DNA of 10,730 nt, from the UHGV virus genome UHGV-1357920; one strand, written 5' to 3'. Positions 3,180 to 10,182 of the stretch are shown here, in pieces. Under the pieces are notes generated by a model, which had not been told where the DNA came from, searched no databases, and worked only from the letters and a program-made list of their open reading frames with translations. Numbering within the stretch: the stretch's first letter is position 1; every line of letters starts with the position of its first letter. Both the position numbers and the translations under genes were made by a program. The DNA comes from a virus.

Positions 3180-3719
3180 ATGAGTAACTGGTGGCAGGAA
3201 CTATTACGTTTCTTCCTGCGTGGTCTTACGCTACAACAGTTAATTCATATGCTTATTATTTTAATTGCCTTGATAATAATCACCCCCGCATCAATTAAAG
3301 AGTGGGTAGATATAAGGAACCCAGAAATACTTCCAGATCACTGGATGTATTACGCAATGCTTTTGTGTATCAGTTATGTTCTGAACAGGGTGATGGAGTT
3401 TATATTTCTGGCATCTTCAGACAGATATAAAAAATATCTCAGTAAGAGAGATGAGGCTAAAGTAATTGTGGAGACTGAGCGCCTGTTCAATTCTCTGAGT
3501 ATTCAGGAAAAAGAGGTTTTAGCATTTGCTGTTATGGCAAATAACAAAATCGTACTTAAGCACGGCGATCCGGTCGCTTTATCTCTTATGAGAAAAGGCC
3601 TTCTCCATCGCTCAGGTGTGACTTACAGCGCGTCAGGTAAAGAGAAATTTGTTATACCTGACGTCTGGTTCCATGAGTGTTATATGCGCTTTGCTGGTAA
3701 AGCTGATGAGCTAATTTAG
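3180..3719 (+). CDS. sieB: SieB-like superinfection exclusion membrane protein, 179 aa
   Basis: Plus-strand ORF embedded among leftward pL-operon genes and convergent with N (its 3' end is 22 nt from the N stop), the arrangement I recall for lambda sieB. N-terminal hydrophobic helices (LIHMLIILIALIIITPA; YYAMLLCISYVLNRVMEFIFLA); SD GGAG 8 nt upstream. The call is based on position and membrane topology, not on a verified alignment. Confidence 0.5.
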   Translation: MSNWWQELLRFFLRGLTLQQLIHMLIILIALIIITPASIKEWVDIRNPEILPDHWMYYAMLLCISYVLNRVMEFIFLASSDRYKKYLSKRDEAKVIVETERLFNSLSIQEKEVLAFAVMANNKIVLKHGDPVALSLMRKGLLHRSGVTYSASGKEKFVIPDVWFHECYMRFAGKADELI

Positions 3720-3725
3720 TTCCTC

Positions 3726-3753
3726 GACGGCGGGGGATCGTCACCTCGCCGTC
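3726..3753. terminator. GC-rich hairpin at the convergent sieB-like / N junction (possible bidirectional terminator)
   Basis: Inverted repeat GACGGCG (3726-3732) / CGCCGTC (3747-3753), extendable to about 10 bp with a G-U pair. It overlaps the N stop codon and is followed on the plus strand by a partly T-rich tract (AGTTGTTTGGATTT). Confidence 0.4.
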
Positions 3754-4124
3754 AGTTGTTTGGATTTCCGGTAGCCTGCCGCGTAAATGGCTACGTTTGG
3801 AAGACATACACCAGTTTCTGGTTGCTTATGTCCAAACTCATTCGCGTACACAATGGCCGCTCGCTCCAGATTGCGTCTGTATTCTTTCTGTTGCCAGATC
3901 ACGTCCTGTGCCATGAACTTAATTGGCTTAGCGTCTTCTATGCGCTCAGGCGTTTCGTGAGTACCTTTAGCCTGAATCTGCGCTCTGCTTAGAGTAGGGC
4001 GGTGTAATACTTCTGAACTTATTGCTTCTTCGCGGGCCAGCACGCCGTTAGCTAATGCCTTTGCCTTTAAACGCTCACGACGACGAGAACGTGAATTGCC
4101 TTTGAACTGAGTTCTGCGTGTCAT
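3741..4124 (-). CDS. N: N-type transcription antiterminator, 127 aa
   Basis: N-terminal arginine-rich motif (GNSRSRRRERLKAKALANG). The C-terminus ...AIYAAGYRKSKQLTAR closely resembles the C-terminus of P22 gp24/N as I recall it. SD AGGAGG upstream; a P22-type boxB lies in the leader. This is the first gene of the leftward early operon. Confidence 0.8.
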   Translation of the reverse strand: MTRRTQFKGNSRSRRRERLKAKALANGVLAREEAISSEVLHRPTLSRAQIQAKGTHETPERIEDAKPIKFMAQDVIWQQKEYRRNLERAAIVYANEFGHKQPETGVCLPNVAIYAAGYRKSKQLTAR

Positions 4125-4372: not shown

Positions 4373-4416
4373 ACTTTATCGAAATGATAAATTAATGGCA
4401 ATAGCAAAATGATAAA
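4373..4416 (-). promoter_or_regulatory. pL promoter with OL operators (17-bp TTTATC-N5-GATAAA palindromes)
   Basis: OL1 at 4375-4391 is the perfect palindrome TTTATCgaaatGATAAA; OL2 at 4400-4416 is AATAGCaaaatGATAAA. On the minus strand the candidate -35 is TTGCCA (plus 4401-4396), followed by a 17-nt spacer and -10 TAAAGT (plus 4378-4373). The layout closely mirrors PR on the other side of cI. Confidence 0.5.
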
Positions 4417-4596
4417 TTTTCTTGGTTTTCAAATATCGTATTGATTCTTATGGTGTTTTATTTTGTTGTAGGAATTCGACAGGATAAATAAAGAGATTTG
4501 AGGGAGATCTGGATTGCGTTGTTTAGCAAGTTGTATCTATCAATTTTTCAACAAATACAATTGGTTATGTGTTTTTAGGTGTGGGGATCGTCAGGC

Positions 4597-4622
4597 AAAG
4601 AAAACCCGGCGCGGAAGCCGGG
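4597..4622 (-). terminator. Rho-independent terminator (minus strand) ending the cI / 341-aa-gene transcript (lambda tImm equivalent)
   Basis: Stem CCCGGC (4605-4610) / GCCGGG (4617-4622), loop GCGGAA; followed on the minus strand by UUUUCUUU (plus 4597-4604). It lies 14 nt past the stop of the 341-aa gene. Confidence 0.7.
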
Positions 4623-4635
4623 GTTAGATTTTCTG

Positions 4636-5661
4636 TTATGGGCGAGTGATGGTTGATGCGTTTCCGTTTTCTATTACACCTGCTCGTATCGTGTAGCTTC
4701 CCAAGATTTTTACTGTCCTGTTTTCTTTCATTGCATCAAACAGTATGGCGATCTCGTCTTTATCATCTATGAACGACGTGTCCACCGAAACAGGGAAACT
4801 GTCTTCACTAGATGGTTCGCGGCAGCTTAGGGTTATCTTTTCCGCAGTACGCTTGATTCCATCAATGACTAATTCAAGGTTTCTTTCTTCTTTTTTTGCT
4901 TTTTCGATAGGGTTTTTGATTAGTTCGTGGATTTCTTTGTTAGACAGTTCAACTGTGCTTGCGCCTGATATGACAATTTTGTCAGCATCAGACGCGCCTT
5001 TTAATACCCCTGTATACGCTTTTGCAGTATGCTCTTGAATCCCTTCGGCGCGCTCTACTGCATCTATGCCCGCTTTAGCTCTAATCGCCTCAAGCATTCC
5101 GTCCCTTAATATCGTCATGCGCTCGTTTTCTGATTTAATCTTGGCTTCTTCGAGCTTTGTTTCTTCTTGCTTGACTTCTACTTCGGCTTTTTTCTCTAAG
5201 TATGATGTACCAACCCATGCACCGCCTATAACGGTGACAGCAAACAAGAAGCATAATGTTTTTTGGCTAGGACTCATACCGTGTGTTACCTTCTCAAAGG
5301 CTTTACCGAATGCTTCAAAAAGCTCTGTTAATGCAGCAAGTATATCAGTACAACCTTCATTAATGGTAAAGATGATCTCTGCTTCTTCTTTATCTTTACC
5401 GGTTAACCTTTGAAGGTTGTCAGTTTTATATTTTATTAGTGTGAAAACTTTATAAATTTCAGTCTGAAATTCGCATAAACCCTGAGCTAGAGGAGATGGA
5501 AGCGTTCCGTTGTAGCGAGAAGGATCACCATAAATCTTAAAATTCACATTATTGAAGAGGTCTAACTTGATCCTGTCGATAGTGATCTCTTCGCCACCAT
5601 CTAACCTTGCAAACAAAGATTCAATGTCGTCCAGACTTGAAACATTAATAATATCTTTCAT
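4636..5661 (-). CDS. Hypothetical 341-aa single-pass membrane protein in the cI-downstream (rexAB-equivalent) slot; candidate lysogen-expressed exclusion/defence protein
   Basis: Intact ORF with SD AGGTG 5 nt from the ATG, immediately downstream of and co-oriented with cI. One predicted TM helix (about LCFLFAVTVIGGAWVGTSYL), a soluble N-terminal region of about 130 aa and a K/E-rich, probably helical, C-terminal region. AT-rich; followed by a strong terminator. No known motif recognised. Confidence 0.75.
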   Translation of the reverse strand: MKDIINVSSLDDIESLFARLDGGEEITIDRIKLDLFNNVNFKIYGDPSRYNGTLPSPLAQGLCEFQTEIYKVFTLIKYKTDNLQRLTGKDKEEAEIIFTINEGCTDILAALTELFEAFGKAFEKVTHGMSPSQKTLCFLFAVTVIGGAWVGTSYLEKKAEVEVKQEETKLEEAKIKSENERMTILRDGMLEAIRAKAGIDAVERAEGIQEHTAKAYTGVLKGASDADKIVISGASTVELSNKEIHELIKNPIEKAKKEERNLELVIDGIKRTAEKITLSCREPSSEDSFPVSVDTSFIDDKDEIAILFDAMKENRTVKILGSYTIRAGVIENGNASTITRP

Positions 5662-5741: not shown

Positions 5742-6446
5742 TCACGAACTTTTCAGCCATTCCCTTGCCTCGATGTCATCCAGATGGCGAGACTGCTTCA
5801 GAATACCAGCAACATACTCCACCTTTGCTACTTGATGATAAGGCAACGTTATTGGCCTGTGGTCCTGGTTGATGCTTGTAAATTGGTATTCTCCATCTCT
5901 GTCATAGCCAAGAACCTTAATCATGTTGTGTCCTTCAACGGTTCTGACAAACACCTCATCACCCGGGAATACTTTGGTGTTAGGCTCAATGAGTACATAT
6001 TCTCCTGATTTTATTCTGGGCCACATGCTGTCTCCTTTCACACGAAGACCAAAGGCATCTGGATCATCGCTATAAATTTTGAGCCACCCATCGCGCTCTT
6101 CGGTCATCTCGATGGCACCATCAACACCAAGAATTGCCTCACCAACCACGCGCACTAACCCTTTTCTTACCTGACCGACAAAAGTTAAAGAATCTGAGCA
6201 TGATGCAATTGGTGTTACATCATGTACCAAATCAAGCCACCCATTAGGTAACCCAAGCGCGGCTTCAAATTTTCTTGCTAGTTTATCCCCTATGTTTCGA
6301 GTGCTTTTTTCACCGGAGACTTGCGTGAGTTGAGAAGGGCTAACCCCAAGCTTATCGGCAAAGCTTGCATTAGTGTTACCCGCGATTTTTTTATGCTCAT
6401 CTAGCAAAAACGCCAGATTCGATTTGCGAATATCTTTGTTTTCCAT
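5742..6446 (-). CDS. cI: CI-type prophage repressor (N-terminal HTH plus C-terminal S24/LexA-like autocleavage domain), 234 aa
   Basis: The N-terminus has an XRE-type HTH (...ASFADKLGVSPSQLTQVSG...). The C-terminal domain carries the S24 peptidase signature GDSMWP (Ser nucleophile) and a downstream Lys (MIKVL). It is divergent from the cro-like gene across an operator-rich 113-bp spacer. Confidence 0.85.
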   Translation of the reverse strand: MENKDIRKSNLAFLLDEHKKIAGNTNASFADKLGVSPSQLTQVSGEKSTRNIGDKLARKFEAALGLPNGWLDLVHDVTPIASCSDSLTFVGQVRKGLVRVVGEAILGVDGAIEMTEERDGWLKIYSDDPDAFGLRVKGDSMWPRIKSGEYVLIEPNTKVFPGDEVFVRTVEGHNMIKVLGYDRDGEYQFTSINQDHRPITLPYHQVAKVEYVAGILKQSRHLDDIEAREWLKSS

Positions 6447-6464
6447 CTCACAATTTTCCCTCTA

Positions 6465-6532
6465 TTTAGCAAATGGATAAATACGCAATATGATAAATTT
6501 ACATTGCGGTTGATTTATCAAAATGGTAAAGT
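6465..6532 (+). promoter_or_regulatory. OR operators and PR promoter (PRM presumably in the same region, not mapped)
   Basis: Palindromic sites TTTAGCaaatgGATAAA (6465-6481) and TTTATCaaaatGGTAAA (6515-6531), with a further GATAAA half-site at 6492-6497. PR candidate: -35 TTGCGG (6504-6509), 17-nt spacer, -10 TAAAGT (6527-6532), followed by SD GGAGG (6550-6554) and the cro ATG at 6560. Confidence 0.5.
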
Positions 6533-6559
6533 TGTTCTGTGTGATAAACGGAGGCACTA

Positions 6560-6793
6560 ATGAGTAATGAACTACTACGCTGGCGAAAAGAGGCTTCTAG
6601 TGAGGAATGGAAGCGACTCGCCGCATTAGCGAAAACTTCAGTTGGCTATCTTGACCAGATTGCATATGGATTTCGAAGAGCTTCCCCTGATAAAGCGAAT
6701 GCAATCGAAGAAGCTACTCGTAATTTCACGGGTTATAAACCTGTGAAAAAGGAAAACCTGGTGTTCGTATCGCGTAGAGCATCGGCTGCATAA
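6560..6793 (+). CDS. cro: Cro-like early repressor (small HTH protein), 77 aa
   Basis: First gene of the rightward operon, divergent from cI, with strong SD GGAGG at 5-nt spacing. It contains a probable HTH (LAALAKTSVGYLDQIAYG). It is not lambda Cro by sequence; the call rests on position and size. Confidence 0.6.
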   Translation: MSNELLRWRKEASSEEWKRLAALAKTSVGYLDQIAYGFRRASPDKANAIEEATRNFTGYKPVKKENLVFVSRRASAA

Positions 6794-6931: not shown

Positions 6932-7231
6932 ATGGAACAAACAAGTTACAGCAAACTATCACAGCGTGACGTTGATCGCGCAGAAACAGATTTACTCATC
7001 AACCTGTCAACTATTACCCAGCGCGGTCTGGCAAAGATGATTGGCTGTCATGAATCGAAGATAAGCAGAACGGACTGGCGGTTTATTGCTTCGGTCCTGT
7101 GTGCTTTCGGAATGGCATCAGACATCAGTCCGATTAGCAGGGCTTTTAAGTATGCGCTTGATGAAATCACCAATAAAAAACGCCCGGTGTGCAAGACCGA
7201 GCGTTCTGATCAAATACAAATGGAATTTTAA
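6932..7231 (+). CDS. cII: CII transcriptional activator, 99 aa
   Basis: The C-terminus ...ITNKKRPVCKTERSDQIQMEF matches the lambda CII C-terminus (...LTNKKRPAATERSEQIQMEF) as I recall it. Central HTH region present; located downstream of cro and nutR. Confidence 0.85.
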   Translation: MEQTSYSKLSQRDVDRAETDLLINLSTITQRGLAKMIGCHESKISRTDWRFIASVLCAFGMASDISPISRAFKYALDEITNKKRPVCKTERSDQIQMEF

Positions 7232-7253: not shown

Positions 7254-7397
7254 ATGCGAAAAACGCAGGAAAATAAACGCGTTAATCACCGAAAAGATGT
7301 GCTACGTGACCAGTTTTATCAGGGGGTTAATCCAGCAATAGCTGTGCCACTGAGAGAAATACTTAACAGGTACAAAACTTCGGAGAAGTCAAAATGA
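7254..7397 (+). CDS. Small basic hypothetical protein, 47 aa (internal start of track ORF 7086..7397)
   Basis: ATG at 7254 is preceded by SD GAGG (7243-7246); its stop overlaps the start of the O-like gene (ATGA at 7394-7397), suggesting translational coupling. Sequence MRKTQENKRVNHRKDVLRDQFYQGVNPAIAVPLREILNRYKTSEKSK. Could be a spurious ORF. Confidence 0.4.
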   Translation: MRKTQENKRVNHRKDVLRDQFYQGVNPAIAVPLREILNRYKTSEKSK

Positions 7398-8191
7398 GCA
7401 TGAATCTTATGGCTAAGGCCATGAATATAAAGGTTGGCAACCCACTGAGAAAACTGGTTCTGATTAAACTTGCCGATAACGCCAATGATAATGGCGAATG
7501 CTGGCCTTCATATCAACATGTCGCTGACCAGTGTGAGGTGAGCAGATCGACAGTAAAAAGTCACATTAGGGCACTGGAAGAGATGGGGCTTTTGAAAAGG
7601 GAATTCAGAAGAAAAGGAGAGCTTAACCAGTCAAACGTTTTTTATCTGACGCTGGATAATGCACAACAAATCCAACCAGAATCAGGTGGGGCAGGAGCTG
7701 CCCGGGGTGGGGCAGGAGCTGCCCGGGGTGGGGCAGGAGCTGCCCTAGGGGGTGGGGCAGGAGCTGCCCCCAGAACCTATCACTCTTTTGAACCAGTCAA
7801 TGAACCTAAAAACATTATGTTCGAACATGTCCGAACGGAGTGTGAAAAAACTCCTGACCGTCACGAAGAAACCGACAAGGCATTCGAGGAAATATTCTGG
7901 TGTGCAGGCATGCGGAAAGCCGGGAAGAAAAACGCAGCTTCGGCATTCAGAACACAGTTCAGGGAATGGCGTAAAACTACCAGGGGTACGGCAAGCGAGT
8001 TTGCCACGATGCTGGCAGAAGACATCGCATGCAGGAGTGGTAAGCAGTTCGGATTCGACAGGTTGTTACCATCGAGCTACCTGAACGGTCAACGCTGGAA
8101 CGACGAGAAGCCAGAAACTATTCAACCGCAACCCAAACCATCATCCGCAATCACCGTATCGAAAACTGGCTACGTGTTTTTCGACAGGTGA
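7394..8191 (+). CDS. Replication initiator (lambda O-like role) with N-terminal winged-HTH and an iteron-encoded Gly/Ala-rich linker, 265 aa
   Basis: The N-terminal HTH region (CWPSYQHVADQCEVSRSTVKSHIRALEEMGLLKRE) is typical of phage replication-initiation proteins. The central peptide repeat GGAGAAR is encoded by four tandem DNA iterons. The gene sits after cII, where lambda O and P22 gene 18 lie. Confidence 0.7.
   Translation: MSMNLMAKAMNIKVGNPLRKLVLIKLADNANDNGECWPSYQHVADQCEVSRSTVKSHIRALEEMGLLKREFRRKGELNQSNVFYLTLDNAQQIQPESGGAGAARGGAGAARGGAGAALGGGAGAAPRTYHSFEPVNEPKNIMFEHVRTECEKTPDRHEETDKAFEEIFWCAGMRKAGKKNAASAFRTQFREWRKTTRGTASEFATMLAEDIACRSGKQFGFDRLLPSSYLNGQRWNDEKPETIQPQPKPSSAITVSKTGYVFFDR
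7686..7769. repeat. Four tandem iterons (GTGGGGCAGGAGCTGCCC; period 21, 21, 24 bp), putative phage origin inside the initiator gene
   Basis: Directly visible copies at 7686-7703, 7707-7724, 7728-7745 and 7752-7769, followed by a relatively AT-rich stretch (about 7775-7835). This is the same architecture as lambda ori inside O. Confidence 0.7.
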
Positions 8192-8301
8192 ACCATGAGA
8201 TCCAGAATCAAATCGTTACTTATCGCTGGCTATAACCATGGCTGGCTTAGTTCTGCATTCGTTGAGTTCTGGTTTAACCGTCTCGATCTGAGGTCAGCGT
8301 A

Positions 8302-10182
8302 ATGACTCCAAGTGAACTGAGCGACCTGCTTTGGGCGCAGGTTGACAGGGTGGCTCCGCACCTGTTGCCAAACGGCAAGAAAGAGGGGCATGAGTGGGTT
8401 GCCGGTAATGTCAACGGTGACAAGGGAAACAGCCTTAAGGTCAACCTTAGCGGCAAGAAAAAATGGGCTGATTTCGCCGAGGGAGACGGCGGTGACATGC
8501 TTGATTTGTGGATGGCATGTCGTGGAATTAACCTGCATCAGGCTATGCAGGAAGCGAAAGCATTTCTCGGTATCAAGGATGACGATCACCATTTCGATGC
8601 CAGACGTGAGAAAAAATTCTCCAGACCTGATCGCAAGAAAATCGCCCGCTACGTTACCAGAACAGAATCCCATCTTGAGTACCTGCAATCGCGTGGCATA
8701 TCGCCAGAAATCGTAAAGCGCTACGAGGTTGTCAGCGGCAAGGTGTGGAATGGAGAGCGGGAACTGGATGCTCTGGTGATTCCGTACAAACGCGATGGTG
8801 AGTTGTTGCAGGTCAAGCGAATCAGCACTGAGCGCCCGGACGGGAAGAAAGTCATTATGGCAGAAGGTGATTGCGAACCTTGCCTGTTCGGATGGCAGGC
8901 TCTGGACGCTGGCGTGAGGGCGGTTGTACTTTGCGAAGGCGAAATTGATTGTATGAGCTATGCGCAATACGGCATCTCGGCGTTATCCGTACCGTTTGGT
9001 GGAGGGAAAGGCGCTAAGCAACAGTGGATTGAGTTTGAGTATCACAACCTCGACAGGTTTGAGGAAATATTCATCTCGATGGACGTTGATGATGTTGGTC
9101 GTGAAGCCGCAAGGGAAATCGCAAGCCGACTCGGTGAACATCGTTGCCGTCTTGTTACTCTGCCGTGCAAAGACATCAACGAATGCCTGATGAACGGTGT
9201 TACCGAGGATGAAATCTGGCAGTACATCGGCACGGCATCCTACTTCGATCCTGAAGAACTCTACAGCGCGCGAGAGTTTTACCAGGACACTATCAACGCT
9301 TTCTACGGCAAGCAGCAGTATCTGTTTAATCCACCGTGGGAATCTCTGGCAGATAAATTCCAGTTCCGTGAGGCAGAGTTGACGCTGGTCAATGGTGTGA
9401 ACGGTCACGGAAAAACGGAGGTTGTCGGGCATATGGCACTTGAGGCAATGCGTCAGGGTGTGAAGACGTGCATCGCGTCACTTGAGCTGAAGCCTGGTAT
9501 TCTCCTTAAGCGCCTTACCCGTCAGGCGACGTGCTGCAAGATGCCACCAGTGCTGGAAATTGACTCTGCATTTAAATTTTATGACGAAAGACTTTGGGTG
9601 TTTGGCCTGACCGGAACGGCGAAAGCCGACAGGCTGATCGAAATATTCGACTACGCTCGCCGCCGATACGGGATCCAGTTATTCATCATCGACAGCCTGA
9701 TGAAATGTGGCATAGGCGACGATGACTATAACGGGCAGAAGGCGTTTGTTGACTCGATTTGCGACTTCAAAAACAAAACAAACTCCCACGTCATTCTCGT
9801 TACTCACTCGCGAAAAGGAGACAGCGAAGAAAAACCAACCGGGAAAATGGACGTAAAAGGCTCTGGAGCGATAACAGACCTGACAGACAACCTTTTCATC
9901 ATCTGGCGTAACAAGGCTCGCGAGAGAGCGTTACAGAGAGTTCAGAGTGGTGAAAAGATGTCAGAGAAGGACGAACAGCTACTGGCATCTCCGGCATCTG
10001 TTTTGATGCTTGAAAAACAACGTAACGGCGAAGGTTGGGAAGGTGGTGTCCCGTTGTTCCTTGACGAGCAATCGCACCAGTTCCTGCAACTTGAATCAGG
10101 ATCGCCATATAGCTACATCGCCAATATGCCGAAATCGGAATATGACGAGGCGTGGCGACAGGAAAACGTGACGGAGTATTAA
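8302..10182 (+). CDS. Bifunctional primase-helicase (degenerate zinc-ribbon-like N-terminus, TOPRIM primase, DnaB/gp4-like RecA-fold helicase), 626 aa
   Basis: TOPRIM motifs (VVLCEGEIDCMSY with the conserved Glu; ISMDVDDVG with DxD). Helicase Walker A (NGVNGHGKTE) and Walker B (LFIIDSLMK). The N-terminal segment aligns by eye to the DnaG/gp4 zinc-binding domain but lacks the Cys/His ligands. Confidence 0.85.
   Translation: MTPSELSDLLWAQVDRVAPHLLPNGKKEGHEWVAGNVNGDKGNSLKVNLSGKKKWADFAEGDGGDMLDLWMACRGINLHQAMQEAKAFLGIKDDDHHFDARREKKFSRPDRKKIARYVTRTESHLEYLQSRGISPEIVKRYEVVSGKVWNGERELDALVIPYKRDGELLQVKRISTERPDGKKVIMAEGDCEPCLFGWQALDAGVRAVVLCEGEIDCMSYAQYGISALSVPFGGGKGAKQQWIEFEYHNLDRFEEIFISMDVDDVGREAAREIASRLGEHRCRLVTLPCKDINECLMNGVTEDEIWQYIGTASYFDPEELYSAREFYQDTINAFYGKQQYLFNPPWESLADKFQFREAELTLVNGVNGHGKTEVVGHMALEAMRQGVKTCIASLELKPGILLKRLTRQATCCKMPPVLEIDSAFKFYDERLWVFGLTGTAKADRLIEIFDYARRRYGIQLFIIDSLMKCGIGDDDYNGQKAFVDSICDFKNKTNSHVILVTHSRKGDSEEKPTGKMDVKGSGAITDLTDNLFIIWRNKARERALQRVQSGEKMSEKDEQLLASPASVLMLEKQRNGEGWEGGVPLFLDEQSHQFLQLESGSPYSYIANMPKSEYDEAWRQENVTEY

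Follow-up and report, generated by a model that had tools for sequence, protein, structure and literature searches.

A lambdoid prophage immunity region of probable H-19B specificity and its candidate operator sites

Relation of the window to H-19B and other lambdoid phages

The operator sites of phage lambda are evenly spaced, at roughly 23-24 bp, and the lambda PRM message is leaderless. The operators of H-19B, the closest described system, are said to have been characterised by Shi and Friedman in 2001, and repressor binding was reportedly shown. We used the GenBank record of this Stx1 phage (AF034975; Neely & Friedman, 1998; Shi & Friedman, 2001) and its repressor CI (AAD04644) as the reference. 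One sentence of a review (PMC8065619, citing Shi & Friedman, 2001) gives H-19B four operator sites in OR, and the same review sets against this phage 933W, with an OR of three sites and an OL of only two. The experimental standing of each site comes from this review sentence and from GenBank feature notes; searches of literature text found no operator sequences. H-19B-type and 933W repressors have their C-terminal domain in common, and the 933W repressor has been reported to be non-cooperative (PMC3202840). At the DNA level, 933W is unrelated to the locus described here in the part encoding the N-terminal DNA-binding domain, in the operators and in cro.

The window, that is, the whole stretch of 10,730 nucleotides that was analysed, carries the following early genes and related features, numbered from its first letter.

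3180-3719, plus strand: sieB (ORF layout and domain matches)
3741-4124, minus strand: N antiterminator gene, first in the PL operon (Pfam PF25694 N_peptide, E = 2e-15)
4605-4622, unstranded: G+C-rich hairpin with T runs on both sides (terminator scan)
4636-5661, minus strand: orf341, an ORF of 341 aa between cI and PL
5742-6446, minus strand: cI repressor gene, 234 aa (Pfam Peptidase_S24, E = 4e-16)
113 nt between cI and cro, unstranded: OR intergenic region (ORF layout)
6560-6793, plus strand: cro gene, 77 aa, first in the PR operon (PHROG 35 'transcriptional repressor', E = 4e-7)
6932-7231, plus strand: cII, downstream of cro (Pfam Phage_CII)

The cI and cro genes diverge across the short OR, cII lies 3' of cro, and on the opposite side N follows PL (ORF layout, Pfam and PHROG); PL/OL occupies the intergenic region between N and orf341. 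The ORF layout and domain matches identify the locus as a lambdoid early regulatory region. CI is composed of an N-terminal HTH domain followed by a C-terminal S24 self-cleaving peptidase domain; it matched PHROG 4 'transcriptional repressor' (E = 6e-38), and its residues 23-67 gave a weak HTH_3 match that falls under the Pfam cut-off (E = 0.005). A PDB sequence search with CI returned matches to pseudoazurin only, in the C-terminal domain (E = 5e-4 to 8e-3), which were judged spurious. A Pfam search with Cro gave no match. The hairpin at 4605-4622 is probably the terminator of a cI-orf341 transcript, which it would set apart from the PL region. The window shares with lambda the divergence of cI and cro, the placement of N after PL and of cII after cro, a CI made of HTH and S24 autopeptidase domains, and 17-bp pseudo-palindromic operators, three of them in OL, that overlap PL and PR. 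It differs from lambda in operator sequence and hence in immunity, in the four OR sites, instead of three, that annotation and the review assign to this type, in the uneven spacing of its sites, in the presence of a Shine-Dalgarno sequence for cI, and in the 933W type of its CI C-terminal domain.

We are highly confident that the window holds the lysis/lysogeny switch, or immunity region, of a lambdoid prophage whose immunity specificity is that of H-19B. All 234 CI residues are identical to those of H-19B CI, as are 76 of the 77 residues of Cro and 124 of the 127 of N. The 113-nt OR differs from that of H-19B at one nucleotide (6510, between the -35 hexamer and OR1 and outside all sites), and OL1 differs at one central nucleotide (4382). 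Megablast against phage records gave 99.2% identity over 1059 nt between the cI-OR-cro segment and that of ST2-8624, BP-4795, AU5Stx1 and many Stx1a/Stx2a-converting phages; OL and OR of the ST2-8624 immunity region (GQ499358) align to the window with 1-2 substitutions. The same OR was found in 155 of 5426 complete E. coli genomes. Because CI and the operators are identical, the prophage is predicted to be homo-immune with H-19B; given its immunity group, it should be so with BP-4795 and ST2-8624 as well. A previous reading of the window, made from the sequence alone, had taken the operator consensus to define a candidate immunity type and had suggested a comparison with known immunity groups. 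Run here, that comparison returned H-19B (by CI, OL1 and OR identities); with a CI identical to that of H-19B and operators already annotated in GQ499358, the type is not a new one.

The window is a mosaic, and the modules next to its immunity region differ from those of H-19B: it has orf341 between cI and PL, and the distance from N to cI is 1618 nt in the window versus 1949 nt in H-19B. The cII gene is about 80% identical to that of H-19B, and the O/P replication genes of H-19B are replaced in the window by a module consisting of an HTH_36 initiator and a Toprim/DnaB primase-helicase. Stx phages with H-19B-type immunity likewise differ from the window in the gene occupying the cI-PL slot and in the replication module. 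When complete E. coli genomes were searched with the whole window, none covered at least 80% of it. The cI gene, too, is a mosaic. The C-terminal domain is encoded by 428 nt at its 3' end that are 96-98% identical to repressor genes of the 933W/phi24B type; the N-terminal part is specific to the H-19B type, as are OR and cro. PADLOC, applied to orf341 and neighbouring ORFs, returned nothing for five of the six; the ORF at 890-1570 gave two weak matches, to mad8 (E = 2.3e-5) and PDC-S19 (E = 0.0015).

Operator sites and promoters in OL and OR

Reading of the sequence, motif statistics and conservation revealed multiple 17-bp pseudo-palindromes in OL and OR that overlap the -10 and -35 elements of PL and PR. 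The sites, which are unstranded, and the promoter elements are as follows; mismatches are counted against the half-sites of TTTATC-N5-GATAAA.

4375-4391: OL1, TTTATCGAAATGATAAA, perfect half-sites (0 mismatches), across the PL -10; annotated OL1 in GQ499358
4400-4416: OL2, AATAGCAAAATGATAAA, 3 mismatches, all in the left half; annotated OL2 in GQ499358
4432-4448: OL3, AATATCGTATTGATTCT, a weak third left operator, 5 mismatches; annotated OL3 in GQ499358
6465-6481: OR3, TTTAGCAAATGGATAAA, 1 mismatch, adjoining the cI ribosome-binding site; annotated OR3 in GQ499358
6481-6497: OR2 in the favoured register, ATACGCAATATGATAAA, a consensus half-site (6492-6497) plus a weak left half, with one base common to OR3
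6514-6530: OR1, TTTATCAAAATGGTAAA, 1 mismatch, across the PR -10; annotated OR1 in GQ499358
6532-6548: OR0, TTGTTCTGTGTGATAAA, a fourth right-hand site, 2 mismatches, in the cro leader 1 bp downstream of OR1; annotated OR0 in GQ499358
4373-4378, minus strand: PL -10 hexamer TAAAGT, overlapping the left half of OL1 (sequence reading and promoter scan)
4396-4401, minus strand: PL -35 hexamer TTGCCA, overlapping OL2 by 2 bp (sequence reading and promoter scan)
6504-6509, plus strand: PR -35 hexamer TTGCGG (sequence reading)
6524-6532, plus strand: PR extended -10, TGgTAAAGT, with TG at 6524-6525 and TAAAGT at 6527-6532 (sequence reading)

GQ499358 is noted as similar to H-19B and bears the misc_features OL1, OL2, OL3, OR3, OR2, OR1 and OR0, which map to window positions 4375-4391, 4400-4416, 4432-4448, 6465-6481, 6489-6505, 6514-6530 and 6532-6548, respectively. 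The 17-bp consensus proposed by the sequence-only reading agrees with both the sequence and the motif statistics, and its coordinates for OL1, OL2 and the upstream OR site are exact; its OR1, at 6515-6531, has to be moved by one base to 6514-6530. The upstream OR site, which is OR3, had been described as weaker, but it has one mismatch, the same as OR1. Only two clear sites had been seen in each region. That is an undercount, with four of about seven sites found: GQ499358 annotates three in OL and four in OR, the review sentence on H-19B gives four in OR (PMC8065619), and our comparative data back a third site in OL (OL3, 4432-4448) and another in OR (6481-6497). The further sites OL3, OR2, OR3 and OR0, annotated or inferred, would bring OL to three sites and OR to four. 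Sites are spaced by 25 bp (OL1-OL2), 32 bp (OL2-OL3), 49 bp (OR3-OR1) and 18 bp (OR1-OR0). The order by mismatch count against the consensus is OL1 > OR1 = OR3 > OR0 > OL2 > OR2 > OL3.

PL/OL and PR/OR had been described as near-duplicates, and they are indeed built alike, with the common layout TTGCnn-17 bp-TAAAGT and an operator across each TAAAGT -10. The spacer between the hexamers is 17 bp in PL as well as in PR, and the two promoter 30-mers are identical at 22 of 30 positions, counted from the sequence. A consensus promoter scan found PL independently (9 of 12 positions); PR, matching the sigma-70 consensus at 7 of 12 positions only, was uncalled in the scan. Neither this consensus nor inspection by eye of the minus strand from OR1 to cI located PRM, no convincing -35/-10 pair being seen there. 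A plus-strand consensus match, TTAGCA-17-TATGAT at 6466-6494, lies inside OR3/OR2 and was taken as chance in AT-rich operator DNA.

Matches to TTTATC-N5-GATAAA with at most one mismatch occurred three times in the 10.7 kb, all in OL or OR, compared with 0.049 expected under a first-order Markov model of the window (0 of 2000 simulations reached three) and 0.005 under the AT-richer composition of intergenic sequence. With up to three mismatches allowed, 19 matches were observed versus 7.4 expected from dinucleotide shuffles, none of 200 shuffles reaching 19. The motif is therefore not equally frequent in AT-rich DNA, by comparison with either the window or the intergenic model, and a chance origin in AT-rich DNA is excluded. 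There was a mild excess outside the operators, where four sites at up to two mismatches were counted against about 0.8 expected; the 2-mismatch matches at 1032, 2546, 7315 and 10556, in or between unrelated genes, were treated as chance. Scanning the window with a symmetrised position weight matrix (PWM), built from the four sites of the sequence-only reading as that reading had proposed, set those sites apart, at scores of 18.7-22.6 with everything else at or below 11.2, and it brought up 6481-6497 as a further top match outside the training set. By motif alone OL3 was non-significant (PWM rank 10, about seven such scores expected per window), as was OR0 by its PWM score; a site with two mismatches, as OR0 has, is expected 0.07 times in intergenic sequence.

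This operator set is therefore a correct rediscovery of one that has been characterised and is already known. It carries little weight as a discovery: the H-19B module recurs in the 155 E. coli genomes and in many Stx1 and Stx2 phages. Its practical value lies in the assignment of an immunity group to the prophage, in a single coherent set of coordinates for seven candidate operator sites and in flagging a disagreement between two GenBank annotations of OR2. In Stx phages, operator layout and repressor level bear on the ease with which a toxin prophage is induced, so a correct site map is useful for modelling the switch.

Conservation among near-identical loci and in Pantoea relatives

A scan of IMG/VR with the CI N-terminal domain yielded 55 loci, 51 at 99-100% identity and four at 51-65%. 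Full-length alignment to the window was obtained for 50 loci in OL and 53 in OR, and the polymorphism of the two regions acts as a natural footprint. Of the 101 OL positions, 24 differ among the 50 loci: one of the 36 half-site positions of OL1-3 versus 23 of the 65 elsewhere (Fisher p = 1.5e-4). Variation within OL1 is confined to central bases (4381, 4382 and 4384), OL2 is invariant in all 50 loci, and OL3 keeps its half-sites while the centre positions 4438 and 4440 vary. Among the 53 OR loci, OR3 is invariant save one singleton and OR1 save one central singleton; the left half of OR0 varies at 6533-6535 in 7 to 18 loci. The invariant blocks of OR are 6457-6483 (the cI Shine-Dalgarno sequence, at 6458-6463, and OR3), 6491-6498 (TGATAAAT), 6503-6507 (the -35 TTGC), 6514-6532 (OR1 and the -10) and 6542-6547. 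Within the PR -35 hexamer the loci differ at 6508 and 6509, TTGC being the same in all. For OR, the Fisher test gave p = 0.04 with OR3 and OR1 only and was non-significant with all four sites in either OR2 register (p = 0.34 or 0.63).

The more diverged relatives, Pantoea prophages (immunity regions L056-L062) and IMG/VR contigs, have an OL and OR collinear with those of the window and a CI N-terminal domain only 51-65% identical to the window's. A contig scan for more diverged CI relatives returned only three Pantoea loci, of the same group as in IMG/VR, so the co-variation series grew no wider. The half-sites of these relatives are mostly TTTAGC-N5-GCTAAA, compared with TTTATC-N5-GATAAA in the window, and the recognition-helix region of their CI reads ASQFSQLLG where the window's reads PSQLTQVSG. 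OL2 lies at +25 from OL1 and is kept with GCTAAA or GATAAA; OL3 lies at +33 (+32 from OL2 in the window), and the relatives have a stronger site, TTTAGCAgAATGATTTA, at this homologous position. OR1 lies at +49 from OR3, whose half-sites are identical to the window's, and a further site abuts OR3; the relatives are without OR0. Their promoter elements, -35 TTGnnn and -10 TAAACT or TAAATT, occupy the same places with the same 17-bp spacing: PL has TAAATT with TTGCTA or TTGCCA, and PR has TAAACT 17 bp from TTGnnn. Cro is closely similar to that of the window, the stretch TSVGYLDQIAYGFRRAS being identical. Co-variation of protein and site in relatives is a prediction of true operators, and OL3 is thus credible despite its non-significant motif score. 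As to the count of four sites in OR, OR3, OR1 and 6481-6497 are well supported, whereas OR0 has a variable left half and is absent in Pantoea; OR0 is backed by annotation and the review rather than by the data of this analysis.

The OR2 register, the number of sites and the working of the switch

The only point left to explain is the register of OR2. The 17-mer at 6481-6497 is the best untrained PWM match in the whole window (rank 5, 0.4 such scores expected per window), whereas the registers given in GenBank rank 418 (6489-6505, GQ499358) and 7834 (6486-6502, NC_049922). Its core, TGATAAAT at 6491-6498, is invariant in the 53 loci, and in the relatives the sequence at precisely this 17-bp register is ATATGCAAAATGCTAAA, with the same change from GATAAA to GCTAAA as in their OL1, OL2 and OR1. 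We favour 6481-6497 for OR2 because of this PWM rank and of the register conserved in relatives. For OR2, GQ499358 and NC_049922 thus give different registers, and neither agrees with the motif and comparative data.

OR2 could instead lie at 6489-6505, as in GQ499358, with the 6481-6497 register being wrong; we consider this unlikely, though still a serious possibility. Three of the four OR sites of GQ499358 agree exactly with the motif, and its OR2 may copy a published experimental assignment. Placed there, OR2 would restore an even, lambda-like spacing (24 bp from OR3 and 25 bp from OR1, compared with 25 bp between OL1 and OL2) and would mirror OL2, lying 25 bp from OR1 and overlapping the PR -35 by 2 bp as OL2 does the PL -35. 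The favoured register, by comparison, calls for an unusual arrangement of OR3 and OR2, with one base pair in common and 16 bp between their centres. However, the 17-mer at 6489-6505, TATGATAAATTTACATT, has mismatches at 8 of its 12 half-site positions and a PWM rank of 418. It is not in phase with the invariant block 6491-6498, and variation falls in its right half, at 6499, 6501 and 6502. In the relatives the homologous 17-mer is neither conserved nor palindromic, whereas the sequence in the 6481-6497 register is both. The use of a third register in NC_049922 also weakens the appeal to annotation.

Returning to the favoured register, the full proposition would be that OR2 has been mis-registered publicly, lying at 6481-6497 and not at 6489-6505, and that OR consists of two tight pairs, OR3/OR2 and OR1/OR0; we rate this as quite improbable. 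If it were true, centres would be 16 bp apart in OR3/OR2 and 18 bp apart in OR1/OR0, with the pairs separated by 33 bp. Such a paired geometry would be unlike that of lambda and would fit a repressor that has a 933W-type C-terminal domain and is without adjacent-site cooperativity. The mis-registration would be new only if the footprints of Shi and Friedman did not already show 6481-6497.

A bipartite switch, in which OL1/OL2 and OR1/OR3 are the only functional operators and the other motif-like sequences are non-functional, seems very improbable to us. It would account for the gap in PWM scores between these four sites and everything else, for the non-significance of OL3 and OR0 by motif alone, and for the variable left half of OR0 and its absence in Pantoea; the two OL sites that the review gives the related phage 933W offer a precedent (PMC8065619). 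It is at odds with the three left and four right sites annotated in GQ499358 and with the four OR sites of the review sentence on H-19B (PMC8065619). Nor does it explain why the half-sites of OL3 are kept amid a variable centre and variable flanks, with a stronger site at the homologous position in relatives, or why 6481-6497 is the top untrained PWM match and is kept in relatives with a co-varying half-site. We give practically no weight to the repeats being AT-rich promoter-associated sequence or sites of a host factor such as Fur (GATAAT-type boxes). The GATAAA half-site is similar to the Fur hexamer GATAAT, elsewhere in these phages Fur regulates Stx1 expression, and 2- and 3-mismatch matches are in mild excess outside the operators. 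However, matches with at most one mismatch are confined to OL/OR even against the AT-rich intergenic background model, the relative orientation of the half-sites is the reverse of that in the Fur 7-1-7 motif, their sequence co-varies with the CI recognition helix in relatives, and the best Fur-box matches in OL/OR reach 11-12 of 19 with 43 equal or better places elsewhere in the window, so that the best of them, at 12/19, equals background and the Fur-box hypothesis was rejected.

With the repeats read as operators, the sequence and the database identities suggest that CI dimers would recognise 17-bp pseudo-palindromes of the consensus TTTA(T/G)C-N5-GATAAA. By analogy with lambda, CI would cover the PL and PR -10 elements when bound at OL1 and OR1 and would touch the PL -35 from OL2, excluding RNA polymerase and thereby shutting off N on the left and cro, cII and replication on the right. 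OR3 presumably mediates auto-regulation of cI transcription, down-regulating cI, since it adjoins the cI ribosome-binding site. As in other members of the family, RecA-stimulated self-cleavage of CI through its S24 domain would lift repression, and Cro would then occupy the same sites. Because the C-terminal domain of CI is shared with the non-cooperative 933W repressor (PMC3202840), occupancy may depend mainly on the intrinsic strength of each site. The uneven spacing of the sites (25, 32, 16 or 24, 33 or 25, and 18 bp) would be compatible with occupancy set by intrinsic affinities.

Mosaic composition of the prophage and its repressor gene

A mosaic junction lies within the repressor gene cI (5742-6446, minus strand), where positions 5742-6169 and 6170-6446 differ in distribution. 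The 3' 428 nt, which encode the C-terminal oligomerisation/cleavage domain, share 96-98% identity with 933W/phi24B-type and some 'Lambda_ev' repressor genes, whereas the CI N-terminal domain, the right operator region (OR) and cro are restricted to H-19B-type phages. This junction is consistent with the C-terminal domain being common to the H-19B and 933W repressors (PMC3202840). Mosaicism also extends to the whole prophage. H-19B carries lambda-like O/P replication genes; the corresponding module here is of a different kind:

7394-10182, replication module encoding an HTH_36 initiator (265 aa) and a Toprim/DnaB-type primase-helicase (626 aa)

Because no complete E. coli genome was found to cover at least 80% of the window, we regard the prophage as a mosaic bearing the H-19B immunity cassette.

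Operator register and a sister immunity group

Public records place OR2, one of the candidate 17-bp repressor operators in OR, differently: at 6489-6505 in the ST2-8624 immunity-region record GQ499358 and at 6486-6502 in NC_049922. Motif scoring and the Pantoea relatives both point to a register of 6481-6497. These diverged relatives (L056-L062), comprising Pantoea prophages and IMG/VR contigs, are a sister immunity group. Their CI N-terminal domains are 51-65% identical to that of the window and their Cro proteins are very similar to its Cro; their operators read TTTAGC-N5-GCTAAA in an OL/OR layout collinear with the window, although OR0 is absent from the group. The window and its sister group offer a ready pair for studying a shift in repressor specificity of one base per half-site.

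The interval between cI and PL

The slot between cI and PL, filled by rexAB in lambda, is occupied by an open reading frame followed by a hairpin:

4636-5661, minus strand, orf341, 341 aa, function unknown
4605-4622, G+C-rich hairpin with T runs on either side

H-19B and ST2-8624 carry other genes in this position. orf341 matched PHROG 6191 ('unknown function') with an E value of 1e-98 and gave neither a Pfam nor a PADLOC match; its counterpart in PhiR12 phages is labelled 'T2SS GspM containing protein'. It may be an accessory gene expressed in the lysogen and cotranscribed with cI.

An extra lone GATAAA half-site (gGATAAAt) is located at 4483-4488, 35 bp past OL3, the candidate operator at 4432-4448; it is probably a chance occurrence, and no recognisable partner half was present in 4472-4488, where GAATTC stands in its place. 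In 2 of the 50 related loci aligned to the window, both from IMG/VR, the substitution A4373G converts the PL -10 element from TAAAGT to TAAAGC with loss of the conserved last T, which may be a sign of decaying prophages.
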